The notes under the pieces are model-generated. The model was not told the DNA's origin, did not search any database, and saw nothing but the letters and a program-made list of their open reading frames with translations. The position numbers were made by a program, and so were the translations under genes. A stretch of 64,000 bases of DNA from positions 36,147 to 100,146 of the IMG/VR virus record IMGVR_UViG_3300042870_001427. The stretch is one strand, 5' to 3'. This document shows, piece after piece, positions 20,533 to 61,654 of this stretch; within the stretch, counting starts at the first letter, position 1; each line of letters starts with the position of its first letter. Origin of the DNA: a virus. Lineage: Duplodnaviria > Heunggongvirae > Uroviricota > Caudoviricetes.

Positions 20533-21075
20533 TTGAAGAAGATCATTAGTGCAACTTTGGTTGCTTTGTCATGCGCAGCATCTGCTGCAGATTATTTTAG
20601 CGTTGATATTGATTCGGTTAACGATCAAGTATCTGGTGCACGTAGCACCGCACAATACATTCGCGCTGGTAAGGAACTTGTTGGCATTCAAATGGGTGTA
20701 CAGGGACGTACTGCTATTTCCCAAGCCGGTGGAATGCTTAGTAGCCTAGAAGTAACTGGTGGTAAGAACATCGGACCTTTCACACCCTTTGTTGGTGTTG
20801 GCTTTGATAACGGCGCAAACGGTGCACGGAATGCCGATTACAAATACGGTTTGGTTGGTGCAACAGCAGGCATGAAAGCTGGTCCAGGTTTTGCATTGGC
20901 CGGTGTTAAGACCCGTCTTGGTACTACAGCAGCAGTTGAGACCAAGCAAACGGTTGTATTCGGTACATACAGTGTTCCAGTTGCCAAAAACGTTGCAGTT
21001 AACTTGAATGCAAGCAAGAGCTATCAGGATATTCAAGAGAACGCATTCGGCCTTGGAGTCGGAATTAGCTTCTAA
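20533..21075 (+). CDS. outer-membrane beta-barrel-like protein
   Basis: Signal peptide MKKIISATLVALSCAASAA; alternating strands; C-terminal GVGISF. Confidence 0.75.
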   Translation: MKKIISATLVALSCAASAADYFSVDIDSVNDQVSGARSTAQYIRAGKELVGIQMGVQGRTAISQAGGMLSSLEVTGGKNIGPFTPFVGVGFDNGANGARNADYKYGLVGATAGMKAGPGFALAGVKTRLGTTAAVETKQTVVFGTYSVPVAKNVAVNLNASKSYQDIQENAFGLGVGISF

Positions 21076-45700: not shown

Positions 45701-48700
45701 AAATACTCCTCTACCTCCACCACCTGAAGTAGATACAATGAGTATCGGTACTGTAGCTATCGCACCTTTCCCAAGTCTTACCTCTAAGGCTGCTTCAGTA
45801 GCAAAACGACCTGATCTTAAGAACACAATCACTCTTTCTCAAACTCGTAGATATACGATGAATGATATTAACGCGCTTGAGGAAAGAATTCAGAGATTAG
45901 AATACTATACCTTACTTAATACTATTGAGGCTGATACAAAGAATTTAACCTTGCCAAGTGAGGCTAATACCTCTTTTGAGCGCTTTAAAAATGGTTTCTT
46001 TGTAGATGCATTTAGTGACTATCAAATTTCAAACATTAATGATGGTGAGTATAAGGCACTAATTAATACTAATGAATCAAAACTAACCCCTCAACAAGAA
46101 CTTATATCTGTAGATCTTAAGTATTCTAATGCCGGAACTAATACCACCAAGCTTGGAGATTTAGTAACGTTACCTTATACTACCACCACATTGGTCAGTC
46201 AGCCACATGCAAATAAAGAGAGAACATTAGTAACTGGCTATTGGAATTTTGCCGGTAAGATGATTGTTATTCCTAGAGTAGATAACTTCTTTGATACAGA
46301 TGTCGTAAGTACATCGGTCATTGATATTAATATCGCAGATCCTATTAATGCACTAACTAATTCTGTTAATGATGCGTTAGGTAAATTAAACTTAACCCCT
46401 AACAATATTAAAGTTAGCTCAGGTGGTATTCAAGAGGGTGCAACTACAGTAAATACTACTGACTACGGCGGATGGGGTACAAGACAAACCAATAGAAACT
46501 TCTCTGAAACTCTAACTACCACTAAAACTGATACATTTCAAAAGATTAAACCTGCACCCACCGTTTCATCCACCCAGAATGTAGGTAACTTCTTAAAGAG
46601 CGTACAAGTTAATCCTTACATTAGAGAGCAGAGAATTGCATTACATGTATCCGGATTAAGACCTGGTGCCCAGCACTACGTGTTTTTTGATGGAGTAGAT
46701 ATTACATCATTCTGTTCTCCTGCTACCATAACTGACCCCAATAACGCTACTCTGAATAGCTTCTTACCTATTTACAACAAAGGTACAAGCCCTCCGCTTG
46801 AAGCTAACGCCAGCGGAGTACTAGCCCTAGTAGTTTATTTACCAGGTGATACCTTTACTACAGGTGAAAAAGAATTCCTGGTCATGGATGTAAGCACCCT
46901 TGCATCTGAATCAGGAGCAACATCTAAGAGTACCGGTAAGTTTTCATCATTCTCTATTAGCGGTACATCTGGTGCAATTACAACCAGTACAAAATCTTTT
47001 GATTTAGCCCAGAAAGATACATTCGGTGTGTCCACCTATCAAGACACCCAGGTAATAAATCAGACCACTAATAAGTGGGCGGTATCTACTGTAGAGGGTT
47101 GGGGCTATATGCCTCCTGGTACCGATCCTTTAGCCCAGACATTTTATGTTCACCCACAGGATTCATCTGAGTTCATGCACTTGTCTGCTATTGAAATATT
47201 CTTTAAACAGAAAGATACAACAAAAGGAGTTACCTTAGACATTAGAGAAGTTAGTGATGAGGGCGCAGTAAGACCTTTCATTGTACCATTTGGTACAGTA
47301 TATAAATCATCTGCTAACGTCAGTGTGAGTAATAATGCAAGCGTGGGTACTATGTTTAACTTCCCGTCTCCTGTACAGGTAAAGACTGGTAGAGAGTATG
47401 CTATCGTACTAACCCCAGATGCAGCGTCACCTGACTATAGAGTTTGGACTGCTATTCCAGGTATACCGGACGTATTAGATACTACCAAGACACCTAATAA
47501 GTCTTGGGGTGAAGGTACTCTGTTTTACTCTACCAGTAATAGATCATTTACTGCTGTACAAGACGAAGATATTAAATTTAAGGTATATAGAGCTGAGTTT
47601 ACCTCAACTACTGGAACCCTTCAAATGACCAATGATGATACGGAGTATTTGACTATTGCCAATAATTCCGGGTCGTTTACGGGCGGTGAAGAGGTAGCCC
47701 AACTTGCAAATTCATATCTAAATAGCACCATTACTACTAATACATCAAGCTCTACCATTACAACTGGTAGTAGCCTATCATCGGTATTAGCTGCCAACGA
47801 TACGGTATTAATTGTTTATGGTACTGCTAATAATGTAGGAACTGGCACTGTAACTTCTTCTACCATTACTATTACTAACGCCACCGCTACTAGTACCGGG
47901 TTTACCACAAAGTATGCCAATGGGGACTTTATTAGAATTGGTAATGAGGTAAGACAGGTCATTAGTGTTACAAGTAATGACTCTCTAACTATAGATGCCC
48001 CACTTAATACCGCAGCATCAGGAGCTGCACATTACAGTGTTGATGAACAGTATGATGTGCTAAGAGTTCAATCTGCTAATTCAACTGCTATTGTAGTAAA
48101 TAGACCACCAGCATATACTGTTAGTTCAAGTCTTGCTGCAAGCATTCAAAGAGTTGTTAGCGGAAGAGTAGGTTATTATAACTCTACCAAAGGTAAATTG
48201 TACCTAAAAGACTCTAATGCATCCAACAGTCTGTTTAAAGTGTTTACCTCTAACAGCACATACAATGCATTATTGGTAGGAGATAATTCTAATGCATCGG
48301 CTAAAGTATCATCAGTTGATAATATTGATGTAGCATCCTTTAATCCGTTCATCACCAATATAGTTACCCAAGGCACATCTATTACTCCTTCGTTAACTGT
48401 TTCTAAGTCATCGAATAGTTCTGCTACTGCGACTCTGTCTTATCTACTAAATGGTAAGACAGACGTAGGGTTAAATGATACAGCAGTGGTTAAGAGTAAG
48501 TCAAATGAGATTGACGGTGCAGTTCTAACTAAATCTCTTAATACTACTCTGACTCTTGAGACATCATATACTACTACATCACCTATCGTAGATGTTTCAC
48601 CTGCATCATTAGTATTCAGTAAATATTTAATTAACAATAGCGTTACTGATGAAAATACAAGATACGGAAATGCAAGCTGCAAATACGTTTCTAAGAGACT

Positions 48701-49367
48701 AGTACTAGCCGATGGCCTGGATGCTGAAGACATTAAAGTATTCATCTCCGCCTACAAGCCTTCAGGTACCAATATCTACGTTTATGCCAAGGTTCTTAAT
48801 GCTGCCGATCAAGATGCATTTGAAGATAAAGACTGGTCATTACTTGATCAAGTTACATCTTCAAGTCTATTCAGTGCATCTTTAAACGAGAATGATATTA
48901 GAGAATATGAATACACATTTAAGTATTCCCCAACCGTATCTGTATTAGCAGGTTACGGAACGGCCAATACCGGTAATACAACCATTACAGGCTCTAATAC
49001 CGCTTTCTCATCAGCCCTAACTACTGACGATATTGTTAAGATAGTTAGAACCAGTTCAACCAGTGATTACTTTATTAGCCCGGTTGCTAATGTTGCTAGT
49101 GATACTTCTATTACTCTTGAGAACCCAGTTACATTTAACAGCACCAGCCCTGGTACTGCAATAACTGGTCTGACTATTGAAAAGGTTACCAATCGTAAGG
49201 AAGCCTTCAAGTACAATCAGAACTCTAACATCGCAAGATACTATACTAAAAATCAAGAAGCTATGGACTCTTACAAGTACATGGCATTGAAAATAGTACT
49301 GACTTCGGATACCACCTACCTGGTACCTAAGTTAGATGATGTAAGGGCTATAGCAGTCTCGGTGTAA
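42762..49367 (+). CDS. large structural protein, VrlC/DUF4815-like
   Basis: N.TPYFDDYD..KNYHRILFRPG.A.QARELTQLQ, APGA.R, LARRT.EESG.Y, RF.NGF.VD.F, DPLAQTF. Confidence 0.85.
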   Translation: MAIETNLNVTPYFDDYDEEKNYHRILFRPGVALQARELTQLQTILQTQFERFGDNVYVKGTIIDGCNIFPDYGYNYIKINDLQEDGQPVSLGSYRDQLLIQEGYNLQALTIDSVEGLQSQNPDLNTLYIKYINTGSAGQKVFSNNDVIKVFNVNRTVEEINIIAGGSLYTNSDVVVISGTTGSGALATITTNGDGKIVDVSMVAKGTGYTTVPSISITTAAGVGATLSAVNYIAQIRVADSTYAAPVGRGAAVKTDRGIIYQKGNFVRVSPQTAILEKYSPVANNKSVGFVTTEAIVNSNVDSSLLDLATGAPNFAAPGANRLQLTPTLLVVNTEVGAANNDFLPLLEFQDGNIVRNRDATQFNSINKELARRTFEESGNYVLDTFRLDTSAVGGNTTHFNLIISPGTAYVKGERISLLNNTRTPVRKGTDSSNAVNQTINTQYGSYVVVKELSGLFEIKNGTQVNLRDTAGTDISDNYGGTPTTPGSVIGTSYVRSVEYNSGTPGTPDCTYKLYLFNVVMASGKNFKDVRSVTVNTTAIADVVLTNGLAELQDLQNDSLVFNTGTFAVKELTSEEFIFRTSTTATLTTSGNVSVSFSGANILPYGIGNLSDTDKQQFIIVPQASFRYSANVAGTVSANTPQTNVVGTGTLFTTALRVGDYISIGDSAPQRIAYIYNDQLLGLANTFSGLSGVTANAVANAAYVAFPAYTPVNMNRTGAPARTIFADSNTGLTVSVGAATNVATTFTMYHNLKNYEPAVRVKTVNNPVYVKLSTDKLAGTTTGPWCLGVPDVYALDAVYVGASNSYSESTTNYVDEFIIQSGQKDNYYGLSYLAKKPGSTLSLTATSCLVVKVKSFTHGSGKYMSTESYPIDDTTTTLPSNKIRTETIPIYISPTSGEAISLRDAVDFRPIVANTASTSASTLAAASIDPPATETFIAGEKFFPCPSRSFETTIESYMSRVDRVVITTTGRVRTIEGIPSNTPLPPPPEVDTMSIGTVAIAPFPSLTSKAASVAKRPDLKNTITLSQTRRYTMNDINALEERIQRLEYYTLLNTIEADTKNLTLPSEANTSFERFKNGFFVDAFSDYQISNINDGEYKALINTNESKLTPQQELISVDLKYSNAGTNTTKLGDLVTLPYTTTTLVSQPHANKERTLVTGYWNFAGKMIVIPRVDNFFDTDVVSTSVIDINIADPINALTNSVNDALGKLNLTPNNIKVSSGGIQEGATTVNTTDYGGWGTRQTNRNFSETLTTTKTDTFQKIKPAPTVSSTQNVGNFLKSVQVNPYIREQRIALHVSGLRPGAQHYVFFDGVDITSFCSPATITDPNNATLNSFLPIYNKGTSPPLEANASGVLALVVYLPGDTFTTGEKEFLVMDVSTLASESGATSKSTGKFSSFSISGTSGAITTSTKSFDLAQKDTFGVSTYQDTQVINQTTNKWAVSTVEGWGYMPPGTDPLAQTFYVHPQDSSEFMHLSAIEIFFKQKDTTKGVTLDIREVSDEGAVRPFIVPFGTVYKSSANVSVSNNASVGTMFNFPSPVQVKTGREYAIVLTPDAASPDYRVWTAIPGIPDVLDTTKTPNKSWGEGTLFYSTSNRSFTAVQDEDIKFKVYRAEFTSTTGTLQMTNDDTEYLTIANNSGSFTGGEEVAQLANSYLNSTITTNTSSSTITTGSSLSSVLAANDTVLIVYGTANNVGTGTVTSSTITITNATATSTGFTTKYANGDFIRIGNEVRQVISVTSNDSLTIDAPLNTAASGAAHYSVDEQYDVLRVQSANSTAIVVNRPPAYTVSSSLAASIQRVVSGRVGYYNSTKGKLYLKDSNASNSLFKVFTSNSTYNALLVGDNSNASAKVSSVDNIDVASFNPFITNIVTQGTSITPSLTVSKSSNSSATATLSYLLNGKTDVGLNDTAVVKSKSNEIDGAVLTKSLNTTLTLETSYTTTSPIVDVSPASLVFSKYLINNSVTDENTRYGNASCKYVSKRLVLADGLDAEDIKVFISAYKPSGTNIYVYAKVLNAADQDAFEDKDWSLLDQVTSSSLFSASLNENDIREYEYTFKYSPTVSVLAGYGTANTGNTTITGSNTAFSSALTTDDIVKIVRTSSTSDYFISPVANVASDTSITLENPVTFNSTSPGTAITGLTIEKVTNRKEAFKYNQNSNIARYYTKNQEAMDSYKYMALKIVLTSDTTYLVPKLDDVRAIAVSV

Positions 49368-49578: not shown

Positions 49579-50959
49579 ACCAGTTTCCAATGTTGTAATT
49601 GCAACCGATACATTTGCCGGCTTGATTGGTAAGACCAACATATTAACCGACGCCCTTACAAATTTAATCGTATCTGTGGAGGGTTCTACAAGCGGTGCTA
49701 ACGTTACAGGTAACGGTAGTGTTATCGGTATACTGACAGCTAACACTTATGCTGCAACCCTCGTCAGGGGTGGTAGTGCTGGTAATACAGCCAACATCAG
49801 CACCTTAACATTAGGGGTTGCAAATAGTACTACATCCTCTAACTTAATTATTACTGGATACACAGCCAACGTCTCTGCTAATAATTTAAACATTACTTCT
49901 AATTCAACAGTAAATGCAGCTGCACTGACAGTAAACGTAGCAACTATTGGCATATACGGCAATACGACACTAGGTTCAAACTCTTCCCATAATAATACTT
50001 TAAACGGCAATACACTAACAGTAACATCTAATACTACAGTCAATGCAGCCGCCTTCACCCTTAACGTTGCAACCATAAGCGTATACGGTAATACCACTAT
50101 CGGATCTAACACCACACACAACTTGACCGCCGTTGGTAACGTTGGTAATGTGGTAATGGTACAACTTAACATTCCGTCTAATACTTACATTAATGCATCT
50201 AACGTTTCTGTTAATGGTGCAAACGTTTCAGTATCTGGTGGGCAAGTTAACCTTACATCTAACTTAAATGTATCCGCAGCATACGGTATTATTACTGGTA
50301 ACGTATTTGTTGGTAATGCAGTTGCAACTCCTGTAATCAGAGGTGGTAATGTAGAGAGTGGAAGCACTCTTACCATTGGCTCATCTACCTCAAACGTAAC
50401 TGTTGTTGGTCTGACATCTAACGTTAACAGCAATACATTAAATATTACATCTAATAGCTATATTAATGCAGCCAACGTTACTGTCAATACCTCTTTATTC
50501 ACTGTAAACACATCTAGTTACTATACTATTAATGCAGGTGACACGGTAAGAGTAAGTAACTCAATGGTTATTTCTAACGGTTCATTGACCGTAAATAACT
50601 CAGTATCGGTTTATAGTAACTCCTCTTCAAGAGTCACCTCTACGGCATTAGGATCAGTATTAACATTTCCTAATTCTTCAACCGCCAACCTGGTTGATAG
50701 CTTTGCAATTGCGGATTTCACCTCTGCTAAATATACCATTACAGCAATTAATACAGCTGACACAGAGAAAAAGACTATGTCTGAGTTGAGTGTTGTATAT
50801 GGATCAGGTAATGCGCACATGACTGAATACGGTACTATTTACGTTGATACCCAGTTCGCTACATATACAATTAACGCCACCTCTACTGCTGTCAGACTAT
50901 ACGCACTCTCGACTGTTGGGTCAGTAGCATTTAAGATGTTGAGAGTTGCACTAACATAA
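49571..50959 (+). CDS. fibre-like structural protein with C-terminal adaptor domain
   Basis: DTF..LI.KTN N-terminus; N/T/V-rich repeats; C-terminal D.F....SAKY....TEYG domain. Confidence 0.7.
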   Translation: MAKPVSNVVIATDTFAGLIGKTNILTDALTNLIVSVEGSTSGANVTGNGSVIGILTANTYAATLVRGGSAGNTANISTLTLGVANSTTSSNLIITGYTANVSANNLNITSNSTVNAAALTVNVATIGIYGNTTLGSNSSHNNTLNGNTLTVTSNTTVNAAAFTLNVATISVYGNTTIGSNTTHNLTAVGNVGNVVMVQLNIPSNTYINASNVSVNGANVSVSGGQVNLTSNLNVSAAYGIITGNVFVGNAVATPVIRGGNVESGSTLTIGSSTSNVTVVGLTSNVNSNTLNITSNSYINAANVTVNTSLFTVNTSSYYTINAGDTVRVSNSMVISNGSLTVNNSVSVYSNSSSRVTSTALGSVLTFPNSSTANLVDSFAIADFTSAKYTITAINTADTEKKTMSELSVVYGSGNAHMTEYGTIYVDTQFATYTINATSTAVRLYALSTVGSVAFKMLRVALT

Positions 50960-50978
50960 CAATAATAAGAATCACTTA

Positions 50979-50998
50979 TTAGCGGAAAGGGAAGCTAA
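50979..50998 (+). promoter_or_regulatory. RBS-containing hairpin, copy 1
   Basis: TTAGC-GGAAAGGGAA-GCTAA abutting the ATG. Confidence 0.55.
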
Positions 50999-52938
50999 TG
51001 GCAGCGAATACGCAAAATTTTAGAGTCAAGTACGGCCTAGACGTTACAGAGACGGCAAATGTTGGAAGTACACTAGGAGTAACCGGGGTTGCTACATTTA
51101 GCAATAACGTGGTTATCCAGGGCACACTACAAGTAGTCAACTCTGTTTCTTTTTCTACAACAGTCGATTTAGGTACCAGTGAAATTGTTCTATTAAAGGA
51201 TGTTATTGGTGCACCATCTCTGGATGCCCAGTTAACAGTAAATAGAGGCACATCAGCTGACGTAAATATCAGATGGGACGAGACACTAGATCAATGGAGA
51301 TTTACCAATGATGGTACTCTATTCTTCCCGTTACGTACATATGCCGATGTAACCTATCAGTTCAGTACCACAACAGCAACAAACACCGACCCAAGTGGCG
51401 GTAAGTTTAGACTTAATAACGCATCCCCTGCATCAGTTACTCAAATTGCAATTAGCGAGACTGAGTTCAGTACAACAGATGTATCTGCATTTATAGATGC
51501 ATTAGATGATAGTAATAGCGCGGCACCTAAGGGATACTTACTATTAAGAAGCTCAAAGAACGTAGGTAGGTTCATAGTTTATTCTATTACCTCTGTTACT
51601 ACACAGACCGGTTATAGACAAATTGCCGTCACACATGTATCAGGTACCACCTTGTTTGATAACGACGATGTTATCTTTATATCATTCTCACGTACCGGTG
51701 AAAAGGGTCAAAAGGGTGAAAGAGTAAGCAGCGGGACCTTTACTGATGCCAATAACACCACTACCTTTACGAACTCTGACTCATCTACCTTTCTTGTTAC
51801 CGGGCTTAAGGGCCAAAAAGGTGAGAGAATTAATAGTGCGGCATTTACTGACGCTAATAACACTACTGTATTCACCAATTCCGACTCTTCAACATTTCTT
51901 GTTACTGGATTAAAAGGTCAAAAAGGTGAGAAGGGCGAGAGAGTAAGTAGTGCAACCTTTACAGACGCCAACAACACTACAGTATTTACTAATTCGGATT
52001 CAACTACCTTTCTAGTCACCGGGCTCAAAGGTCAAAAGGGTGAAAGAGTTAGCAGTGCTGCCTTTACAGATGGTACCAACACCACCACATTCACTAATTC
52101 CGACTCCTCTACCTTTACCGTAACCGGATTAAAAGGCCAGAAGGGTGAGATAGGTGATAAGGGTAATAAAGGCGATAAGGGTGAAAGAGTAAGCAGCGGG
52201 GCTTTTACTGATGCCAATAATACCACTACCTTTACGAACTCTGACTCATCTACCTTTCTTGTTACCGGGCTTAAGGGCCAAAAGGGCGAGATAGGCGATA
52301 AGGGTAATAAGGGTGAAGTAGGTCAAAAAGGTGAAGTAGGTCAAAAAGGTGAAGTAGGTCAAAAGGGCCAAAAAGGTGAGGCAGTTGCCTCAGCCTCGTT
52401 TAATGACGGAGCAAACTCCCTAACATTTACTAACTCTGATGCATCTACATTCTCAGTAACTGGAGTCAAGGGTCAAAAGGGTGATAAAGGTGTAGATGGT
52501 TCTTCGATTAAAGGTGATACGGGTACTAAGGGAGAGCCTGGAGGATTTACTACTGCTTCTAATGCCCAGGTAAACTCTTTAGGGGTTGGGGAGTCTGCCA
52601 GTGCAGTAGCCGGTAGAATTAATTGTACCAGCATATACTCTTATTCCTTCTTCTATACCTCTAACAAACACTTAAAGTATGACATTGCCGGGGTTGAGAA
52701 TAGTCTTGAACTTATTAAGAAGCTTAACCCGGTAGAGTTTAAGTGGAAGAAAGACGGCACTACAGATACTGGATTTATTGCACAAGAGGTGTTAGAATGG
52801 ATGCCAAGGGCTGTCTCCAATGATGGGGATGATATTGCAATTAAGTATAACGTAATTATAGCCCATCTCACAAAAGCCGTTCAGGAATTGAGTGGACAGG
52901 TGGAAGTACTAACTAAGAAATTAGAGGGTATAGGATGA
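50998..52938 (+). CDS. tail fibre with Gly-X-Lys collagen segments and C-terminal peptidase S74-like chaperone
   Basis: GQKGEKG/GEVGQK triplets; S....LKYDI......L..I.KL.PV.F.WK...GFIAQEV. Confidence 0.85.
   Translation: MAANTQNFRVKYGLDVTETANVGSTLGVTGVATFSNNVVIQGTLQVVNSVSFSTTVDLGTSEIVLLKDVIGAPSLDAQLTVNRGTSADVNIRWDETLDQWRFTNDGTLFFPLRTYADVTYQFSTTTATNTDPSGGKFRLNNASPASVTQIAISETEFSTTDVSAFIDALDDSNSAAPKGYLLLRSSKNVGRFIVYSITSVTTQTGYRQIAVTHVSGTTLFDNDDVIFISFSRTGEKGQKGERVSSGTFTDANNTTTFTNSDSSTFLVTGLKGQKGERINSAAFTDANNTTVFTNSDSSTFLVTGLKGQKGEKGERVSSATFTDANNTTVFTNSDSTTFLVTGLKGQKGERVSSAAFTDGTNTTTFTNSDSSTFTVTGLKGQKGEIGDKGNKGDKGERVSSGAFTDANNTTTFTNSDSSTFLVTGLKGQKGEIGDKGNKGEVGQKGEVGQKGEVGQKGQKGEAVASASFNDGANSLTFTNSDASTFSVTGVKGQKGDKGVDGSSIKGDTGTKGEPGGFTTASNAQVNSLGVGESASAVAGRINCTSIYSYSFFYTSNKHLKYDIAGVENSLELIKKLNPVEFKWKKDGTTDTGFIAQEVLEWMPRAVSNDGDDIAIKYNVIIAHLTKAVQELSGQVEVLTKKLEGIG
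51700..52560 (+). repeat. internal repeats: six ~31-45 aa modules plus an 18-nt tandem repeat
   Basis: ERVSSxxFTDANNTTxFTNSDSSTFLVTGLKGQKG units; GGTCAAAAAGGTGAAGTA tandem near 52312-52365. Confidence 0.9.
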
Positions 52939-53315
52939 AGTCATTAAGCGTTTCTCAACTTAATACTACAATTAACAACAGTAAGAACACAGATAAAAAT
53001 GATATAGTTTTTACTTATTGTTCTACAGATGAAGCACAAGTACAATTAATTACTAGCCTGGATGACGCTACCATTAATAATGCCACACTTTATAAAGTCG
53101 ATGTAGGAAGCACCCCTCCTGTTTTTGCCGTGCAGCATCTACCAGCGGTCACGGTTTTTAAGGGCGGAGTAAAAAATTCGGAATTTGCCATCGACGTAAA
53201 AGTTGAGACCAGCTCACTTCTAACAACCCTAGATACTAATATTAATACAGTTAATATGTCCTTCAGCCCCTTCATGATAGGTAGCTCGTCAAATACAGAA
53301 GGTGTTAATCAATAA
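52935..53315 (+). CDS. thioredoxin-fold protein lacking CxxC
   Basis: YKVDV.......F.V..LPAV.VFKGG. Confidence 0.6.
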   Translation: MKSLSVSQLNTTINNSKNTDKNDIVFTYCSTDEAQVQLITSLDDATINNATLYKVDVGSTPPVFAVQHLPAVTVFKGGVKNSEFAIDVKVETSSLLTTLDTNINTVNMSFSPFMIGSSSNTEGVNQ

Positions 53316-54898
53316 TGGCTATTGCAAGTACTACAGATAGTAATGCCAGTAGCGCCTACCCGGCATTTCAAAATTATTACGATGCTGCTAGTGTCGGTGA
53401 CGGTAACCGAGGCCTCAGTGCGGCCTTGGCCGTAAATGAGGTTAGTTCGGTGCTGGATCTTGGCACGAGTACTGATGTTAGGGACGATAGATTTGTTCAG
53501 CTCAAAGGTAAATCAGCCGCAATAAATTCTATTTTTATACCGTTAAGAAGTGCTGCAGAGAGAACATCGGTGTTCAATAGTTCCAAGCTTACGAGTGAAG
53601 ACGGGGTTGAATTTAGAAGAGGACCTACAGGGGAAGATTCCGCCTACCCTCAAATATTTGGCGGTCAGGTCGTGAATGCGCCTGCTACTGGTACAAAGTT
53701 TCCAGGGGTAAGACTTACCGCCCGTAAAATGCCACTACCTGTAAGTGGTATAGTAGATCCTGCTAATTTATATCATGATAGTTACGGATATAGTTTTATT
53801 ACAGCCCCCATGACATCTGGGGGAACAGATGATGGTTATGTGGCTATAACTCTACCTTGGGAAGTTGCCTGGGGTCCTAATCACTACAGTTCTGTATTTG
53901 TGGGTACAAACAGTTATGTTACGTTCGGATCAGGTTCAGTTACGTATTCCGGCATAGGCTTTAATACCCCCAACCTTCCAAAGATCTGTATTGGGTCAGG
54001 GGATAATTCAAGCGACCGAGTCAAGTATGTTACCTATAATGTACTTACCTCAACACAACCTTACGCAGGTGCTCCGGTAGAGAATCTCGCTACAGGGGAA
54101 TACCTACTCCGTAAAATTTTTATAATTTATTTTAGAGGTTCTGGAACTACAGGATATGCCGATGAAACAATTAATTCAACTAATGATAATCTGATAGAGT
54201 GGGAGATGTATTTTTACAGTGATGCACGTGGTGTAGTTGATATACACGTAAAAAATATGCCTTTGCATAGATCTAGATGGACATCATCAAGCACTGGTGG
54301 CTTTGTTGGTGGCTCTGGATTTAGTGGTGCTAATCACGAAGGAGGTCAAATAGTTATACCAGGTGTTACAAGTCCAGTAGGAAAAGGTGCTTGCTCATTT
54401 ACCGTTGGTAATGGTGAGTTTATTCGTATTAAGAATGTGGGTGAGCAGATATTTAGAACGACAGCAGGTTTAGGTACGATTAACGGGATTGGGCCTTGTG
54501 TTAGCGGTGGCAGTAGCCCGGCATATGTTTCAGCAGATGCATGCCCATCTGGATGGACAGATATGACAAACGTGAATACTCCACAGGCATATCAATACCC
54601 AACATTTCAAACCGGTGGATGGTTACTAGCATCTGGAACTGCTGCCGGTCATGTACAGGCAATGGTAGATCCTAATAACTATGTCGGTAATGTGGGTAGT
54701 TGGAGAATAAGAAGTAATTCATCTGGTAACTCTTTTGGGTTTAGAGACTCTGCACCATATGAGTACTCAAACGTAACAGATACAACGGGCTGGGGCGCGC
54801 GCATATATTGGGGCTGGGGCTGCACTAGTGGGTTTGTTCTCGCTGCTACCGTTAGATACTGCGTTCCGGCCTGGAGTAATGTTTTCGGGATTGGTTAA
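53315..54898 (+). CDS. hypothetical virion/fibre-associated protein
   Basis: 527 aa, Gly/aromatic-rich; DDGY..I.LPW...VGTN.Y.TFG segment. Confidence 0.65.
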   Translation: MAIASTTDSNASSAYPAFQNYYDAASVGDGNRGLSAALAVNEVSSVLDLGTSTDVRDDRFVQLKGKSAAINSIFIPLRSAAERTSVFNSSKLTSEDGVEFRRGPTGEDSAYPQIFGGQVVNAPATGTKFPGVRLTARKMPLPVSGIVDPANLYHDSYGYSFITAPMTSGGTDDGYVAITLPWEVAWGPNHYSSVFVGTNSYVTFGSGSVTYSGIGFNTPNLPKICIGSGDNSSDRVKYVTYNVLTSTQPYAGAPVENLATGEYLLRKIFIIYFRGSGTTGYADETINSTNDNLIEWEMYFYSDARGVVDIHVKNMPLHRSRWTSSSTGGFVGGSGFSGANHEGGQIVIPGVTSPVGKGACSFTVGNGEFIRIKNVGEQIFRTTAGLGTINGIGPCVSGGSSPAYVSADACPSGWTDMTNVNTPQAYQYPTFQTGGWLLASGTAAGHVQAMVDPNNYVGNVGSWRIRSNSSGNSFGFRDSAPYEYSNVTDTTGWGARIYWGWGCTSGFVLAATVRYCVPAWSNVFGIG

Positions 54899-54918
54899 CT
54901 ATTATTTTTGGATAAATT

Positions 54919-55251
54919 ATGAGAAATTTGAATTACAATGAAATTAGTAATATAGTTTTAAATGATGATAAGTCATTATTTGCTATTATTATATCTAATA
55001 AAGACTGCAATAACTGTAATACCTTCTTAAACTACATTGAGCAATTAGAGCCAAAATACCCTGCCATCTCCTTTCTAGTATTAGAATTAGATGAACTACC
55101 ATTATTTGCTCCTCCTATTTTTCCAAGCATTACTCTCTATCATCGCGGTATGAAAGATAGAGATGCTGGAGGGTTGCCTGAGAGTATTAAATATGTGGAT
55201 AGGTTATTTGAAGATTGGATTGATATGAAAAATAATATGAGTTTAACTTAA
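54919..55251 (+). CDS. thioredoxin-like protein
   Basis: CNNC motif followed by a Trx-like pattern. Confidence 0.65.
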   Translation: MRNLNYNEISNIVLNDDKSLFAIIISNKDCNNCNTFLNYIEQLEPKYPAISFLVLELDELPLFAPPIFPSITLYHRGMKDRDAGGLPESIKYVDRLFEDWIDMKNNMSLT

Positions 55252-55253
55252 AC

Positions 55254-57230
55254 ATGAAAACATTTGTTATAAATTTAGAATCGCGTAAAGATAGATTAGA
55301 TAAGCTGGCCGCCCAACTAGACGAACACGGGTTCGAATGGGAAAGATTTCCAGCAATAAACGGATATAAACTTACATACGGCCAGGTGCGGGATATGGGT
55401 TATGATATTTGTAAGGAGTGGGTTGACCCTCTCTTAAACAGACGCATGACCATGACCGAGATAGCGTGTGCTATCTCTCATATGAAACTGTGGGAAAAAT
55501 GTGTCGAGTTAAACGAACCTATTCTCATACTTGAAGATGACGTTGTGTATATACCCGACAGTAATTTTAGTTTAGAGCATGCTAATGGCTTGTTAAGAAG
55601 TTTTGATATGGTATACTTGGACCATAGAGAAATGATGGAGCATAAGAAAGTCATTCTCTCCGATCTATCCATTCCACATTATCCCTATCTTTGTTCATCA
55701 TATGTTATAAGCCCCGGTGGTGCCTTGAAGTTACTTGAATCTAGATTTAAAGAACTCTTAATCCCGGTAGACGAATTTATTCCAATGATGTTAGGGGTGG
55801 ATCATACAAAAAGTACATTAGCCACTACCCCAGAGGTTAAGTATACTATGGTTCAAGCCCAGTCTCATTATTTGGGTATTGGGTTCTTTAAAGCAATTGC
55901 CTATGAAGATAATAAACCTTTTATGCAAGTATCAAGACAGGTCTTAGGATCTGACATTGAATCGGGTAAGGTGCTCAATTCAAGCCTCCATGCACTTACT
56001 GTTGCCACTGATGAGAATAAATCCTACATGCTTAAGGAGTCAGCCGGTAAGTTTAACATCAACGTCTCTAATTTAGGACGAGGAGTTGAATGGGTTGATG
56101 GTGATATGACTGGTATGGGCGGTGGTCAGAAGTTAAAGCTAGTTAAAAAGTATCTTGAAGAAGTTGAAGACGAGAGTCTAGTATTGTTCTTAGACGGGTA
56201 TGATGTATTCATTAATGACGATTTAAATACTATTGTAAATAGATTCAGATCTTTTAATTGTGATGTACTGTTTGCAGCAGAAAAAACATGCTGGCCAGAC
56301 AAGAATATTTCACATAATTTCCCAGAATCAACTACTCCGTATCGATATCTTAACAGCGGGTTATACATTGGTTATGCATGGGCTATCAAAGAACTGCTGG
56401 TAGGTGATCCTGGGGTTGACGACCAATTCTATCTTCAGAATAAATTTATCGAACAGTATCATTTTAAGAAAAAAATCAATATTAAATTAGACTACGAAAA
56501 CTATATCTTTCAATGCGTGGCTGGGGCTGAAGAAGATATTGAAGTAATGGTCAACCAGAAGTACAAACAGCTTTACAACAATAAGACCAATGTATGTCCT
56601 TGTATACTTCATGGTAATGGCGGAGAGGCACAAAAGACCTTTCTTAAGAACACCTATCGTTCATTATTTGTTAAACAGCTAGAATTTGATACTACAGTAC
56701 CATTAGAAAAACTAGGTGATGAGATACTAGGATTCTCGTTTCTTACTAAAGCCGATTGCGATTATCTGATTAAGAGAGCAGAAGAAACTGGTGTATGGAA
56801 AACTATGCCTGGTGATAAGTTCCCTGGACAAGAGGCAAGAATTAAGGATATCGATCCTTCCCTCTTCATGGAGATATCTGATAAGTTTATGAAATGGGTA
56901 GTACCACAGGCTGAAGCACATTGGTTTCCTCTAAGTGTATACGGAATCAGAGATATGTTTATCATTAAATACTCAACTGATACCCAAGATAGTCTACCGT
57001 GTCACCATGATGCATCTTTAATTACTGGTTCAATTAAGTTGAATGAAGATTACGAAGGCGGTGAACTGGTGTTTAATAGACAGAGGTTTTCTAATATGGG
57101 AATGCAGGCAGGAGAGGTCATTGTATGGCCAGGCCAGGTTACCCATGGCCATGAGTCGTTGAAACTAACTTCAGGCACAAAATACAGCCTCACTATCTGG
57201 ACCTCTCGCTACAAAGGCGATATCAATTAA
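55254..57230 (+). CDS. GT25 (COLGALT-like) + PLOD-type glycosyltransferase + lysyl hydroxylase fusion
   Basis: FVINL..R.DR, CAISH..LW, ILEDD, YVIS..GA.KLL, PVDEF.P; TVAT, GGGQK, LF.DGYD, FAAE..CWP, YLNSG..IG; HHDAS, YEGG, PG..THGHE. Confidence 0.88.
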   Translation: MKTFVINLESRKDRLDKLAAQLDEHGFEWERFPAINGYKLTYGQVRDMGYDICKEWVDPLLNRRMTMTEIACAISHMKLWEKCVELNEPILILEDDVVYIPDSNFSLEHANGLLRSFDMVYLDHREMMEHKKVILSDLSIPHYPYLCSSYVISPGGALKLLESRFKELLIPVDEFIPMMLGVDHTKSTLATTPEVKYTMVQAQSHYLGIGFFKAIAYEDNKPFMQVSRQVLGSDIESGKVLNSSLHALTVATDENKSYMLKESAGKFNINVSNLGRGVEWVDGDMTGMGGGQKLKLVKKYLEEVEDESLVLFLDGYDVFINDDLNTIVNRFRSFNCDVLFAAEKTCWPDKNISHNFPESTTPYRYLNSGLYIGYAWAIKELLVGDPGVDDQFYLQNKFIEQYHFKKKINIKLDYENYIFQCVAGAEEDIEVMVNQKYKQLYNNKTNVCPCILHGNGGEAQKTFLKNTYRSLFVKQLEFDTTVPLEKLGDEILGFSFLTKADCDYLIKRAEETGVWKTMPGDKFPGQEARIKDIDPSLFMEISDKFMKWVVPQAEAHWFPLSVYGIRDMFIIKYSTDTQDSLPCHHDASLITGSIKLNEDYEGGELVFNRQRFSNMGMQAGEVIVWPGQVTHGHESLKLTSGTKYSLTIWTSRYKGDIN

Positions 57231-57240
57231 TTTTGGGTAA

Positions 57241-57248
57241 TATAAATA
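57241..57248 (+). promoter_or_regulatory. T4-type late promoter
   Basis: TATAAATA. Confidence 0.8.
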
Positions 57249-57272
57249 AGACTATATAACCTTGGAAATTAG

Positions 57273-57602
57273 ATGGCAACAAAAGCAAATTTAGTTATCG
57301 ATCAAGGCGCCACCTGGAATAGTACCGTTACGTTGACAGACCCTGACGGTAACTATATTGATTTATCAAGTTATACCGGTGCCGCTCAAATGCGCAAGCA
57401 CTACACCTCCTCTACTGCAACTGCGTTTACAGTACAGCTGGGTGGGGCTAACGGTACCATTACATTATCTCTATCAGCAAACGCAACAGGCAACGTATCT
57501 GCCGGTCGTTATCTTTATGATGTAGAACTCACCGATTCGTCGGGCACTATTTCTCGAGTTTTTGAAGGATCAGTTACAGTCAATCCAAACGTTACGAGAT
57601 AA
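57273..57602 (+). CDS. Ig-like/BppU-N-like small structural protein
   Basis: NL.IDQGA.W, DLS.YT..AQMRK, GRY.YDVELT...R..EG.V.V.P. Confidence 0.75.
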   Translation: MATKANLVIDQGATWNSTVTLTDPDGNYIDLSSYTGAAQMRKHYTSSTATAFTVQLGGANGTITLSLSANATGNVSAGRYLYDVELTDSSGTISRVFEGSVTVNPNVTR

Positions 57603-57605
57603 TAA

Positions 57606-57944
57606 ATGGCAACGTCCTTAGCACAAGTTATCACGATTAATAAGCGTGATACCGTTCTTACCTCAGATGCGCCATTTACACTTAAATCGGCAGTATATGA
57701 CTTCAGCCGTTTAAGTAAACTACTGGACGTTAATGTTACCGAATCTCCAAATAACGCAATATTTGTGTATAATGAGGCATCCGGACAGTGGGAAGATCAT
57801 ACAGTAAGTGGAACCACGAGTGAGGTGCAAGTTTCCTTTGCAAATAACAATCTAACCATTGGATTACCCGATAGCGTCATCGTCACCGACGCATTCTCGT
57901 CAAATACCATATCATTCAACAATATGGATCTGGGTACCTACTAA
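57606..57944 (+). CDS. hypothetical protein
   Basis: L.DV......N....Y....GQW fibre-associated motif. Confidence 0.65.
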   Translation: MATSLAQVITINKRDTVLTSDAPFTLKSAVYDFSRLSKLLDVNVTESPNNAIFVYNEASGQWEDHTVSGTTSEVQVSFANNNLTIGLPDSVIVTDAFSSNTISFNNMDLGTY

Positions 57945-58015
57945 GTCGATTTTACTTACTACCTAAATAGATGGTCTTACATAAGACCTAGTAAAATCCT
58001 ATATAGGGTGCTTTA

Positions 58016-61000
58016 ATGGCAAACACAAAAGTATTACAAATCAAGCGCACGACTGTGAGCGGGCGCACGCCCAATGTCACCAGTAGTGCAAACAGCACTT
58101 ATATCTACCCCGGTGAACTAGCGGTCAACCTAACCGATAAGAAGCTATACACCTCCAACGGGTCGGCTTTAGTTGAGTTTGGTACTAATCTTACATCTCT
58201 TTCCATCAACTCCAACCTAGACGTTTCTGGTAACGTAGTAATAGGTGGAGATCTTACGGTTTCTGGTAATGTAACATACATTAACTCCCAGACCTTAAAC
58301 ATCGGCGATAACATATTCGTTCTGAATGCCGATGTAACTGGTGCACCTTCTGAGAACTCCGGCATGGAGATCAACAGGGGTACTTTTGCCAACGTTCAGT
58401 TCCTATGGAATGAGACTGATTCTAGATGGACCACTAATACCTCTACCTTACACGTTGGTAATACTCTGGTAGTTGCCAATAACACCACTATTACTGGTAC
58501 TGCTAACGTATCAACATCGATAAACGTAGGTGCCAATGTAAATTTAAGCACCAGTTCGATCAACGTTGGCAACTCAACTGTCAATACGTTTATAAACAAT
58601 ATTGCAGTTAATTCAAATACCGTTAATGCAGCCAGTGCAGTTAACGTAGGTGCTAATGTTAACTTAAGCACCAGTCAAATTAACGTAGGTAATAGCACTA
58701 CCAATTCTGTATTAAATAGTACATCCATTACCATTGGCAATACCGTAGTTAATACGACTACAATTGCTATCAGTACAAACGTAGTTTCTAATACTACGGC
58801 GTTAAAGATCGGTAACACAACCGTTAATGCGGTTATCAATAGCACATCTATCGTAATTGGTAATACTGTTGCCAATACAACAGCTATGGCCGTTGGTGCC
58901 AACGTAATTGCAAATACGACTGCATTTAGGGTAGGTAACAGTACTGTAAATTCTTACTTTACATCTAGTCAGTTAAATGTTGGCGCAAACGTTGTACTTA
59001 CTACATCTAATATCACTGTAGGTAATTCAACTGTTAATCTGGCTGTTAACTCCACATCATTCAGCACTGCCGGTGTTATATCTTCTGGAAACGTCAGTAT
59101 AACCGGTACAGCAAACGTATCTGTTGCATTAAACGTTGGTGCAAACGTTAATGCTAATACAACAGCTATTAAGGTTGGTAATACCACTGTTAATGCCGTA
59201 TTGAATCAATCATCACTAACTATTGGTAATACGGTTGCTAACACAACAGGATTATACGTAGGTGCTAACATTTATGCCAATATGACGTCAGTCTTCATTG
59301 GCAACTCAACTGTTAATACTGTTATCAGTAGTGATTCTATCATAATTGGTAACACAGTATCTAATACTACTGTTATTACCATTGGTGCTAATTCTTACAT
59401 TAATACCACAGCACATTTTGTAGGTAATAGCACAGTAAATTCTGCTATTACTTCGTCTTCTATCTTTACCAGCGGTACAATTGCCAGCGGTAATACTACA
59501 GTTACTGGTACGGCAAACGTAACTACAGCAATCAACGTCGGTGCGAACGTCAACCTAGGTACTACCTATATCGATGTTGGTAACAGCACAGTTAATACCA
59601 CCATTACTAATATAACAGTTAGCACCAATACTGTTAATGCAATCAGTGATGTAAATATTGGTGCTAACGTTAATTTAACTACTACTAGTTTTAATGTTGG
59701 TAATAGTACAGTAAATACCAGTATTATTAATTCCGGGGTAACATCTGGTAATGTATTTGTTGGAACAAGTACAACCAATACAGTCATTACACCTACAAGT
59801 ATTACAACAGGTAATACAACAGTCAATACTGTAATAAATTCAACTACTGTCAGTACCAATACTGTAAATGCTAACAGTGCATTGAATGTAGGATCAAATG
59901 TTAATTTAACTACCACCTACGTCAATGTTGGTAATAGTACCGTTAACACATACATTAATTCTACCAGTATAAGTGTACTGACATTAAGTGGTGGTAACGG
60001 TAGTTTCAGTGGTGTTATGTCCATGGGCAACACCAACATTATTGGTACGGCAAATATCAGTGCCAATTTAACTGCCAATAACGTTCGTACATACGGTAGC
60101 GTTCAGATTGACGGCGATCTTGTAGTCGGCGGCAATACAATCACACTTAACGTAACCAATTTGTCACTTGAAGATAGCATGATCTATCTTAATGCCAATA
60201 GCTCGGTAAGTAATCCCGATATTGGATTTGCTGGTAACTATAATGATGGTACGTATCACCATGCAGGTTTCTTTAGAGATGCAACCGATGGTGTATTCAA
60301 GGTATTTGATAACTATTTACCTGAACCGGACGATAGCCCTTTCATCGATACGGCTAATAATACATTTCGTATTGCAGACTTCCAAGCCAATAATACCACG
60401 CTTGGTTCTCTAGTTGTAACTAATATTTCCTATCTTGGCGGGGCGGCAGGGGCCGAGAGTCTAAAGGTAGCCAAAGTAACTTCTGCTATTAATAGTGTAG
60501 AGATTGGTGGTGGAGCAACCGGGGTAAGCCCATACATTTACGCCGCCGGCTCTGAAAGCAACCCACTCAAGGTCAGTGGTAAGGGTAACTTTGGGGTATC
60601 GTTCTTCTCTGGTGCCGGTGCTACTAAACAGTTTGATATTACCCATACCTCTACCGCCGTTAACTACTTACAAGTTACCGGTGCTATATCTACTTCTGGT
60701 CCTATTATTTCAGCCCAGGGTAGTGATACCAACGTTGATCTAAACGTAGTTGCCAAAGGTACTGGGGTAATTAACCTCAAGACCGACAACGGCCTTATTA
60801 CTAGAATAACTGATAACAGCCAGACCAGTATAGTTAACTACCTGGTTATGACGGGTGCAAACACCACCACGTCCCCTAAGCTATCAACTGCAGGTGCTGA
60901 TACCAATATTGGATTACAAGTAGCCACTAAAGGTACTGGATCAATTCAGTTCTATTCTAACAACGATGTAGAACAGGTTAGAATAACTCATACATCTACA

Positions 61001-61654
61001 GCTGTTAACTATCTAAGTCTAACAGGTGCAGTAACTACTTCTGGACCTATCATCTCCTCACAAGGTTATGATACACACATTCCGTTAAATCTATACACAA
61101 AGGGAAGTGAGGCGTTTCACTTCTACACTAACAACGGTGCCCATAGACAGTTTAAATTAGCCCATACTAGTTCGGCTGTTAACTATCTAGAGGCTACAGG
61201 TGGCGCAACTGGTACTGCACCTTCCTTAGTAGTAGGATCAGGAAGTTCGGATACCAATGTTGACTTTACATTATCGGCAAAAGGAACTGGGGTAGTTCAT
61301 TCTACTACACCTCTACAAGTTCAAACCGATACTGTTGTTACTACTAAGACCTTAACTACAACTGCAACCACAGCCGATCAGGTGATTGGCGCATTTGCAG
61401 GTGCAACCTTCCGCTCGGCCGAGTTCGTCATTCAGGCCATAGATGCGACAGGAACTAAATACCAGAAGACTAAAATATTAGCTATACATAATGGTTCTAC
61501 TGCCGACTATACAGAATACGGTAACGTCAACATTGGAGGTGATTGTGGAACATTTGGGATAACTTACTCCGGGGGTAATCTAAACCTAACAGTAACACCG
61601 GCTACAACTAACTCTACTGTTTTCAAAGCAATATGCTTATTGACTAAAGTATAA
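58016..61654 (+). CDS. long tail fibre-like protein (Mtd-N-like start, N/V/T repeats, C-terminal adaptor domain)
   Basis: QIKRT..G..P...GELAVN.TD.KLY; NVGANVNLxTTxINVGNSTVN repeats; C-terminus similar to the 49571 ORF. Confidence 0.85.
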   Translation: MANTKVLQIKRTTVSGRTPNVTSSANSTYIYPGELAVNLTDKKLYTSNGSALVEFGTNLTSLSINSNLDVSGNVVIGGDLTVSGNVTYINSQTLNIGDNIFVLNADVTGAPSENSGMEINRGTFANVQFLWNETDSRWTTNTSTLHVGNTLVVANNTTITGTANVSTSINVGANVNLSTSSINVGNSTVNTFINNIAVNSNTVNAASAVNVGANVNLSTSQINVGNSTTNSVLNSTSITIGNTVVNTTTIAISTNVVSNTTALKIGNTTVNAVINSTSIVIGNTVANTTAMAVGANVIANTTAFRVGNSTVNSYFTSSQLNVGANVVLTTSNITVGNSTVNLAVNSTSFSTAGVISSGNVSITGTANVSVALNVGANVNANTTAIKVGNTTVNAVLNQSSLTIGNTVANTTGLYVGANIYANMTSVFIGNSTVNTVISSDSIIIGNTVSNTTVITIGANSYINTTAHFVGNSTVNSAITSSSIFTSGTIASGNTTVTGTANVTTAINVGANVNLGTTYIDVGNSTVNTTITNITVSTNTVNAISDVNIGANVNLTTTSFNVGNSTVNTSIINSGVTSGNVFVGTSTTNTVITPTSITTGNTTVNTVINSTTVSTNTVNANSALNVGSNVNLTTTYVNVGNSTVNTYINSTSISVLTLSGGNGSFSGVMSMGNTNIIGTANISANLTANNVRTYGSVQIDGDLVVGGNTITLNVTNLSLEDSMIYLNANSSVSNPDIGFAGNYNDGTYHHAGFFRDATDGVFKVFDNYLPEPDDSPFIDTANNTFRIADFQANNTTLGSLVVTNISYLGGAAGAESLKVAKVTSAINSVEIGGGATGVSPYIYAAGSESNPLKVSGKGNFGVSFFSGAGATKQFDITHTSTAVNYLQVTGAISTSGPIISAQGSDTNVDLNVVAKGTGVINLKTDNGLITRITDNSQTSIVNYLVMTGANTTTSPKLSTAGADTNIGLQVATKGTGSIQFYSNNDVEQVRITHTSTAVNYLSLTGAVTTSGPIISSQGYDTHIPLNLYTKGSEAFHFYTNNGAHRQFKLAHTSSAVNYLEATGGATGTAPSLVVGSGSSDTNVDFTLSAKGTGVVHSTTPLQVQTDTVVTTKTLTTTATTADQVIGAFAGATFRSAEFVIQAIDATGTKYQKTKILAIHNGSTADYTEYGNVNIGGDCGTFGITYSGGNLNLTVTPATTNSTVFKAICLLTKV

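Follow-up and report, generated by a model that had tools for sequence, protein, structure and literature searches.

A putative single-chain collagen-lysine modification enzyme encoded downstream of a collagen-like fibre gene in a large T4-like phage

The window analysed here is a stretch of 64,000 nucleotides taken from the IMG/VR record IMGVR_UViG_3300042870_001427, a virus genome of 164,146 bp of which it represents one part, and all coordinates count from its first letter. A preliminary description, made from the letters alone, pointed to two open reading frames (ORFs) of this window: one at 55254-57230, proposed to be a fusion of three domains able to hydroxylate and glycosylate collagen lysines, and one upstream of it at 50998-52938, proposed to encode the collagen-like virion fibre on which the former acts. 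Both ORFs were found at exactly these positions. The genome that carries them is that of a large T4-like bacteriophage, encoding T4-type baseplate, tail-tube and RNase H proteins as well as PhoH, 28 tRNAs and a tmRNA. Its baseplate wedge protein is closest to those of the alphaproteobacterial T4-like phages phiM12, Cr30 and HTVC008M, at only about 34-37% identity, and a megablast search with positions 50000-58000 yielded zero matches in the phage record collection, so that the phage has no close sequenced relative there. The features on which the argument depends are the following, with amino acid (aa) positions where a domain is meant:

50998-52938, plus strand: collagen-like virion fibre of 646 aa, the proposed substrate (Pfam Collagen and Peptidase_S74, PHROG tail-fibre families, triplet count)
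55254-57230, plus strand: putative three-domain collagen-lysine modification enzyme of 658 aa (Pfam, PDB sequence matches, family alignment, AlphaFold, Foldseek)
55254-55979, plus strand: GT25 domain of the enzyme, a COLGALT1-type catalytic lobe with its core at aa 1-182, followed by aa 183-242 with a possible lid loop (Pfam, COLGALT1 match, Foldseek)
55980-56651, plus strand: LH3/R699-type glycosyltransferase domain of the enzyme, aa 243-466 (Pfam PF25342, LH3/R699 matches, Foldseek)
56706-57218, plus strand: PLOD-type Fe(II)/2-oxoglutarate lysyl hydroxylase domain of the enzyme, aa 485-655 (LH3/L230 matches, Foldseek)

The claim of three fused domains was borne out, as Pfam returned Glyco_transf_25, GT_PLOD and 2OG-FeII_Oxy_3 for the 658-aa protein and all the motifs quoted in the preliminary description were found. 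When all PDB sequences were searched, the strong matches were collagen-lysine modification enzymes only, namely the glycosyltransferase (GT) and lysyl hydroxylase (LH) domains of LH3 (E values of 3e-32 and 6e-10), mimivirus R699 (1.5e-23), COLGALT1 (1.5e-16) and the LH domain of mimivirus L230 (6e-10). Among the PHROGs, residues 213-656 were assigned to phrog_61, a large family labelled merely '2OG-Fe(II) oxygenase'. A family alignment of 18 sequences (A1), sharing 40-54% identity with the query, showed that the catalytic residues are all present and that they are invariant with the exception of R11, R14 and W347, for which conservation is at least 90%; this near-total invariance argues for catalytic selection acting on each of the three domains. 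An AlphaFold model computed from the same alignment reached a mean pLDDT of 88.6. In Foldseek, the first structure matched by this model was LH3 (3e-33), followed by the LH3 GT domain, R699, COLGALT1, the L230 LH domain and mimivirus R655, and both prolyl hydroxylases and bacterial GT25 enzymes ranked below all of these. The structural comparison with LH3, COLGALT1 and L230 that the preliminary description had suggested thus placed the top matches among precisely these proteins.

The GT25 domain was recognized by Pfam (PF01755) at aa 2-176, with 99.9 bits and an E value of 2e-28, and matched COLGALT1 far better (2.4e-17) than bacterial GT25 galactosyltransferases (5.7e-6). The structure of the human enzyme, reported in 2026 under its name GLT25D1, revealed an EDD motif in charge of metal and ribose binding, a DE motif acting as catalytic base, and two residues, Arg351 and Arg354, which touch the pyrophosphate and the lid (PMC12987934). 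All of these motifs, essential according to that work, could be aligned with the phage domain, where they correspond to E94-D95-D96 and D173-E174, both invariant in the family, and to R11 and R14. The superposition on COLGALT1 gave a root-mean-square deviation (rmsd) of about 3 Å across 232-260 columns, and R655 (PDB 9crz) was also matched structurally. About 60 residues past the DE motif lies a family-conserved S233-D234-I235-E236 segment, in which D234 is invariant; it may represent the lid loop equivalent to COLGALT1 residues 569-572, which contact the donor phosphate. The non-catalytic N-lobe of COLGALT1 is absent, the phage protein opening with the GT25 lobe at aa 1.

The middle domain scored 199.1 bits for Pfam GT_PLOD (PF25342) at aa 243-458 (gathering cut-off 27, E value 9e-59). 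Its key residues, W280, K293, D314-x-Y316-D317, W347, D389-D390 and H453-G-N455, include counterparts of the LH3 Mn site (D314, D317 and H453), of the uridine diphosphate (UDP)-binding W280 and Y316, of the gating Trp (W347) and of the poly-Asp acceptor loop (D389 and D390), W347 being the one among them that is not strictly invariant. The DxxD, Trp and poly-Asp residues were shown to matter in R699 (PMC9546862). In Foldseek, the domain superimposed on the LH3 GT domain (6wfv) with a TM score of 0.87 and an rmsd of 2.3 Å, and matched R699 at 1e-18. The C-terminal domain was detected by Pfam at aa 573-650 (2OG-FeII_Oxy_3, E value 1.5e-6) and matched the LH domain of LH3 at 1e-10 and that of L230 at 2.3e-10. 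Its Fe(II) triad, H584-x-D586 and H633, aligned with that of both proteins and is invariant in the 18 members of A1. The domain's fold, a double-stranded beta-helix, was matched to that of the L230 LH domain (PDB 6ax6) with TM scores of 0.74-0.75 and rmsd values of 2.1-2.6 Å, ahead of viral and bacterial prolyl hydroxylases. Enzymes of the PLOD/LH type catalyze the 5-hydroxylation of Lys in X-Lys-Gly sequences, and their activity needs dimerization. The accessory domain that lies between the GT and LH domains in LH3 is absent from the phage protein, in which just some 20 residues separate the end of the GT domain (about aa 466) from the start of the LH domain (about aa 485), and no signal peptide was evident at the N-terminus when judged by eye.

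In the proposed substrate, Pfam Collagen (cut-off 27.2) scored 43.5 bits and Peptidase_S74 (cut-off 22) 48.6 bits, and many PHROG tail-fibre families were matched. The fibre is made of an N-terminal domain, a repeat region spanning aa 234-517 and a C-terminal intramolecular chaperone domain (aa 555-606). Within the repeat region, which shows a 105-nucleotide tandem repeat, short G-x-K collagen runs alternate with Thr/Asn-rich units of around 26 residues. Altogether, 42 G-X-Y triplets were counted, in 8 runs of 3-13 triplets; Lys occupies 26 of the 42 Y positions, giving 26 G-x-K-G sites, and none of the X positions, and a single Pro is found, in full agreement with the earlier picture of triplets with Lys at Y and almost no Pro. 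That picture was also right in placing the fibre gene upstream of the enzyme; it is, however, the fourth ORF upstream and not the third, since three ORFs intervene. In the whole genome of 164,146 bp, this fibre is the sole collagen-like ORF.

The preliminary description had regarded the three-domain fusion as unusual for a phage, a view that has to be abandoned. The enzyme matches 434 IMG/VR stretches and, in a large protein collection, at least 294 clusters at E <1e-10, many of them from contigs of 130-165 kb; an exhaustive search retrieved 222 representatives at E <1e-30. PHROG 61 includes several cultured phages: the Synechococcus myoviruses S-CAM9 (gene S820908_031), S-PRM1 (gp162) and S-8S53/55/56, and the Roseobacter siphovirus CRP-6 (gp58), which together with a marine single-cell virus in the phage record collection carry proteins with 37-40% identity. 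Domain make-up was determined for 265 retrieved homologues, of which 198 have the three domains, 38 consist of GT25 and LH3-type GT, and 16 of LH3-type GT and LH. The homologues of roughly 900 aa are L230-like. In one of them, P0170 (899 aa), the GT25 domain precedes a complete body of the LH3 type (GT, accessory domain and LH) that aligns with all three LH3 domains, and the C-terminus matches L230 at 2e-53. Judged from these alignments, the phage protein is an L230-type arrangement minus the accessory domain of about 250 residues. Two variants are also worth recording: in P0088 (875 aa), a methyltransferase domain is fused ahead of the three-domain enzyme, and in P0122 (942 aa) the GT25 domain is duplicated. 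The clusters bear either no label or that of 'GR25 family glycosyltransferase involved in LPS biosynthesis' (LPS, lipopolysaccharide), and the annotations presently given to the family are '2OG-Fe(II) oxygenase', 'LPS glycosyltransferase' or 'hypothetical protein'.

Further evidence came from the genes found with the enzyme in other phages. Eighty IMG/VR loci were grouped at 70% identity into 27 enzyme lineages, 18 of them with at least 5 kb of upstream sequence. In all 18, a collagen-like ORF is present on the enzyme's strand, with at least 10% Lys at Y in 17 of them and no Lys at X in any; the 9 lineages for which no collagen ORF was seen all have less than 5 kb of upstream flank. The enzyme-linked collagens (66 distinct ORFs, 6,362 triplets) contain Lys at 27.3% of Y and at 0 of 6,362 X positions. 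As a control, viral collagen-like ORFs were picked by their periodic GGN pattern, regardless of the enzyme (101 ORFs, 5,130 triplets), and in these Lys accounts for 4.3% of Y and 1.85% of X. It was also observed that Arg is depleted in the enzyme-linked collagens (L004-L083), to 0.6-0.7% at X and Y compared with 2.1-2.4% in the arbitrary viral collagens, Y-position Lys being almost the sole basic residue that remains in these helices. The search for the enzyme elsewhere on five control viral contigs with Lys-rich-Y collagens was negative (0/5), these contigs being just 5-63% complete, and among the Lys-free control loci, of which 3 of 5 were searchable, one weak match was obtained, to a 2OG-oxygenase fragment (E value 1.5e-4).

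A lineage-matched control by means of the baseplate wedge protein gave 9 near relatives only, and complete cultured genomes were used instead. Collagens were found in 5/5 complete genomes bearing the enzyme. Of five complete marine T4-like genomes without it, four are devoid of any collagen and the fifth, that of cyanophage P-SSM2, has several that are essentially Lys-free: the single Lys at Y in 396 triplets lies in an opposite-strand ORF with Pro at every X, which is probably an antisense artefact. Collagen genes situated tens of kb away from the enzyme, in the carriers G009 and G010, still have Lys at 27-59% of Y and at none of X. The enzyme gene of S-CAM9, S-PRM1 and CRP-6 is found a short way downstream of tail-fibre genes that contain 59-99 uninterrupted triplets, with Y positions dominated by Lys and Thr. 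S-CAM9 (L001 7839-9004) and S-PRM1 (L003 7839-9004) also encode two small stand-alone 2OG-Fe(II) oxygenases immediately upstream of the enzyme; as Pro occupies about 53% of X in the neighbouring fibres, these may be collagen prolyl hydroxylases. The co-occurrence with G-X-K fibres, which the preliminary description had named as a check, proved strong when set against two kinds of control, and a common occurrence of the fusion in phages that lack collagen-like proteins, which it had said would refute the proposal, was not seen among the 18 lineages or the five complete genomes. The coupling supports an enzyme-substrate link with collagens bearing Lys at Y.

The identity of the domains, their intact catalytic residues, their fold and the genome-level coupling with Lys-at-Y collagens, all shown by the analysis, are best explained by assuming that the 658-aa protein works in the cytoplasm as a single-chain enzyme modifying collagen lysines and acts on the phage's one collagen-like fibre, a reading to which we assign a probability of roughly 0.72. 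From the original proposal of a one-polypeptide pathway acting on the phage's own G-X-K fibre, the part resting on residues, structure matches and co-occurrence is retained; the rarity of the fusion falls away and, as discussed below, the link with GalE is weak and the product Glc-Gal-hydroxylysine is assumed by analogy. Briefly, the enzyme would be made late in infection alongside the structural genes, and its C-terminal Fe(II)/2-oxoglutarate domain would hydroxylate the Y-position Lys of the 26 G-X-K-G sites on still-unfolded fibre chains. The N-terminal GT25 domain would then link one hexose to the 5-hydroxyl group so created and the middle LH3/R699-type domain would attach a second one, yielding hexosyl-hexosyl-hydroxylysine; the sugars could be Gal followed by Glc, which is the order in animals, or else Glc, which is what mimivirus L230 adds. 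The fibre would subsequently trimerize through its C-terminal chaperone domain and enter the virion, where the decoration might serve fibre stability, protease protection or host binding. The enzyme gene is the last one of a densely packed structural block on the plus strand, with short or overlapping junctions. The T4 late-promoter motif TATAAATA occurs 6 times in the window, with 7.8 copies expected, and perfect copies lie at 30827 and 57241, one on each side of this block; scans of the window for sigma-70 promoters and terminators gave background levels. As the motif is not enriched, the late co-transcription of enzyme and fibre is something that we infer.

Several observations weigh against this reading. 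In the hydroxylase domain, K643 replaces the 2-oxoglutarate-binding Arg of LH3 and L230 (the G-T-R-Y position of LH3), and the substitution is invariant in the phage family. Lys is the basic substitute at the 2-oxoglutarate site in prolyl 4-hydroxylases, and for this reason the function of the hydroxylase is probably kept despite the change. The enzyme also lacks the N-lobe of COLGALT1 and the accessory domain that LH3 and the L230-type enzymes possess, and the collagen runs of the fibre are short (3-13 triplets). In PHROGs the family is categorized as an auxiliary metabolic gene, and the JGI label is that of an LPS glycosyltransferase. Regarding the coupling, the loci compared belong to related phages, so that the counts are not independent events, and the arbitrary control collagens stem from many environments. 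Finally, in lineage L017 the collagen found near the enzyme is almost devoid of Lys. This ORF (L017 7186-8886) contains 1 Lys in 38 triplets, with Thr at 61% of Y and Pro at 55% of X; either the substrate in L017 is another one, beyond the 12.7-kb locus, or the enzyme acts differently there.

The nature of the product was assumed, by analogy with animals, to be Glc-Gal-hydroxylysine, and in this respect the preliminary description had drawn attention to a further gene, proposed as the source of UDP-Gal:

1615-2589, plus strand: GalE-like NAD-dependent epimerase, possible UDP-Gal supplier, 53 kb upstream of the enzyme (TIGR01179)

GalE is indeed the best match of this ORF, as TIGR01179 scored 250.9 bits and the next model, a heptose epimerase, 87.5 bits. 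However, the score is slightly below the NCBIfam equivalog cut-off (262.3), and the gene sits in a heptose-nucleotide cluster (1221-5125). This cluster comprises an RfaE-domain-II-like adenylyltransferase, the GalE-like epimerase, a GT1 glycosyltransferase, an HddA-like heptose-7-phosphate kinase and a GmhA isomerase. The two nearest complete relatives, G009 and G010, have GalE-grade genes (268.6 and 244.9 bits), and such genes are absent from S-CAM9, S-PRM1, CRP-6 and 4 of the 5 control genomes. The link between GalE and the enzyme is thus a weak one, possible yet not required, and confounded by lineage.

That the same enzyme acts on the same fibre to give a different product, such as glucosyl-hydroxylysine or glucosyl-glucosyl-hydroxylysine, which have been put forward for mimivirus, or some different pair of hexoses, is a serious possibility, if short of even odds. 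L230, composed of a GT25-like N-terminus and a PLOD-like C-terminus, was reported to hydroxylate and glucosylate mimivirus collagen, its GT25-like domain adding Glc and not Gal (PMC9614988), and R699, a collagen glucosyltransferase (PMC9546862), may favour Glc-hydroxylysine as acceptor (PMC12279948). The lack of GalE-grade genes in the three cultured carriers just mentioned points in the same direction. On the other side, in favour of an initial Gal, the nearest match of the GT25 domain is COLGALT1, which uses UDP-Gal strictly, although alignments of this kind do not reveal donor specificity, and a GalE-like gene exists in the phage and in its two nearest complete relatives. A more restricted activity, for instance hydroxylation and one glycosylation, with the second GT domain acting as a scaffold or as a sugar-nucleotide binding module, has its precedent in the COLGALT1 N-lobe, which binds UDP-Gal and is yet non-catalytic (PMC12987934), and would fit the existence of the two kinds of two-domain relatives described above. 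We consider it unlikely, given that metal-binding, UDP-binding and acceptor-side residues are present in both GT domains and are nearly all invariant in the family.

An altogether different target was also contemplated. The gene could be an auxiliary or host-takeover gene whose product modifies host LPS, envelope glycans or a host protein, its closeness to the collagen fibre gene being incidental. The very name of GT25 refers to LPS biosynthesis, JGI labels relatives as LPS glycosyltransferases, PHROG 61 is placed in the category 'moron, auxiliary metabolic gene', and marine myophages hold many LPS-type glycosyltransferases in their fibre regions, which a survey of pelagimyophages took as LPS modifiers (PMC7029224). 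Such a role nevertheless appears very improbable, because the GT25 domain is far nearer to COLGALT1 than to bacterial GT25 enzymes, by the E values given above, because two more domains specific for collagen are fused to it, and because the presence of the enzyme tracks collagen Lys at Y genome-wide and in 17/18 lineages. The identification of the GT25 domain as an LPS transferase was likewise judged unlikely, on the grounds of the better COLGALT1 match and of the genomic context.

The remaining ORFs around the fibre and the enzyme are as follows:

52935-53315, plus strand: 126-aa ORF, possibly thioredoxin-like (language-model features score 0.93, a lead only; found only in L004 and L005)
53315-54898, plus strand: 527-aa ORF with no Pfam or PHROG match and no usable hit by language-model features (found only in L004 and L005)
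54919-55251, plus strand: 110-aa thioredoxin-like ORF that bears the motif CNNC and adjoins the enzyme on its upstream side (lead only, features score 0.95; found only in L004 and L005)
57273-57602, plus strand: 109-aa protein, candidate fibre-associated protein (phrog_1084, phrog_3304, jackhmmer)

The pair of thioredoxin-like ORFs around the 527-aa ORF, lying between fibre and enzyme, recalls the protein disulfide isomerase subunit of animal prolyl hydroxylase. The three ORFs were ruled out as conserved partners of the enzyme, as they are confined to two relatives that are 88-90% identical. The 109-aa protein matched phrog_1084 with an E value of 8e-30 and, at 2e-23, phrog_3304, which is annotated as 'L-shaped tail fiber protein assembly'. 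In 17 related loci, that of CRP-6 included, jackhmmer found it next to a gene for a collagen fibre or for the enzyme; it may help to assemble the fibre or serve as an adaptor.

The fibre-enzyme region is bracketed by two long ORFs, at 42762-49367 (a structural protein of 2,201 aa) and at 58016-61654 (a fibre-like, repetitive protein of 1,212 aa, rich in Asn, Thr and Val), the latter giving no match in a PHROG search. Elsewhere in the window, the 28 tRNA genes are organized as arrays that, with the tmRNA (20080-20552, tag peptide ANDEQFALAA), extend over positions 254-20552, and a DUF2828/DUF7788 protein is encoded at 12262-13689, flanked by two tRNA arrays. The tmRNA is asterisked by ARAGORN, a mark which, if it denotes the permuted form, would presumably suit an alphaproteobacterial host.

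What could be new here is a compact, L230-type viral collagen-lysine modification enzyme in tailed phages, such enzymes having been known from animals and giant viruses. A full-text search of the literature brought up no work on lysyl hydroxylase or hydroxylysine in phages, or on phage fibres as targets of GLT25D1-like enzymes, and the papers on the mimivirus collagen enzymes do not mention phages. Hydroxylysine-linked collagen glycosylation is regarded as an animal hallmark to which, among viruses, mimivirus alone makes an exception. If the proposed function is true, this chemistry would be far more widespread and ecologically abundant, the enzyme being carried by hundreds of uncultured phage contigs, by cyanophages and by roseophages, and a modification of fibres that could affect adsorption, host range and particle stability would have been missed by genome annotation and standard virion proteomics. 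The 658-aa enzyme would also become an obvious candidate for use where recombinant collagen is to be made in hydroxylated and glycosylated form in E. coli, in which the human collagen-lysine enzymes express poorly (PMC9546862), and the family provides a large set of sequences for asking where the animal enzymes originated. A broader notion, which we advance tentatively and with more doubt than conviction, is that glycosylated hydroxylysine of the animal kind is a widespread decoration on the fibres of tailed phages and that the collagen sequences of these phages have co-evolved with the enzyme, keeping Lys only at Y and losing Arg. Were this so, almost every basic residue of the helix would be capped by sugars, the functional surface for protease resistance or for binding to host glycans would be a glycan coat and not a bare triple helix, and the collagen-lysine machinery of animals and giant viruses would fall within a much larger, probably older, pool of phages and bacteria.

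When the phage protein is set against systems described previously, a conceptual precedent is provided by Iyer et al. (2010), who predicted that bacterial dioxygenase-sulfotransferase operons modify collagen-like proteins (PMC2938197). Both cases have prokaryotic hydroxylases beside collagen-like or tail-collar proteins as predicted modifiers; the operons of Iyer et al., in contrast, contain neither PLOD nor GT25 domains and are not phage fibre systems. The cultured members of PHROG 61 are true full-length homologues, with E values down to 1e-141 and genes downstream of tail-fibre genes with Lys/Thr at Y, the match with CRP-6 beginning at query residue 53 and leaving the start of the GT25 domain unmatched. 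They are annotated merely as hypothetical proteins or generic oxygenases, and no functional proposal for them was found in the literature.

With the human pathway formed by LH3/PLOD3 and COLGALT1/GLT25D1 (Lys to hydroxylysine, to Gal-hydroxylysine and to Glc-Gal-hydroxylysine), the phage protein shares all three catalytic modules and their key residues (HxD...H in the hydroxylase; DxxD, Trp, poly-Asp and His in the LH3-type domain; EDD and DE in the GT25 domain), and the human target motif X-Lys-Gly, with Lys at Y, fits the phage fibre. In animals, however, the activities reside in two proteins of the lumen of the endoplasmic reticulum (ER), whereas the phage has a single chain predicted to be cytoplasmic, with no signal peptide or ER retention signal visible by eye, no accessory domain, no COLGALT1 N-lobe, Lys for Arg at the 2-oxoglutarate site and identities of about 25-35% per domain. 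R699 (PDB 9dyt), the mimivirus collagen galactosylhydroxylysyl glucosyltransferase, resembles the middle domain in its DxxD, Trp and poly-Asp residues, but R699 and the GT25-like R655 are separate proteins, the former with an accessory domain, and the corresponding parts of the phage enzyme are fused to the hydroxylase. The closest parallel is L230, a virus-encoded single chain in which a GT25-like domain at the N-terminus is combined with a PLOD-type hydroxylase at the C-terminus and whose targets are the low-proline collagen-like proteins of its own virus, and the phage protein follows the same order (GT25, LH3-type GT and LH) as the L230-like P0170. L230 differs in its length (895 aa compared with 658 aa), in having the accessory domain and in its 2-oxoglutarate-binding Arg; the phage enzyme would work in the bacterial cytoplasm, on a tail-type fibre equipped with a C-terminal chaperone domain.

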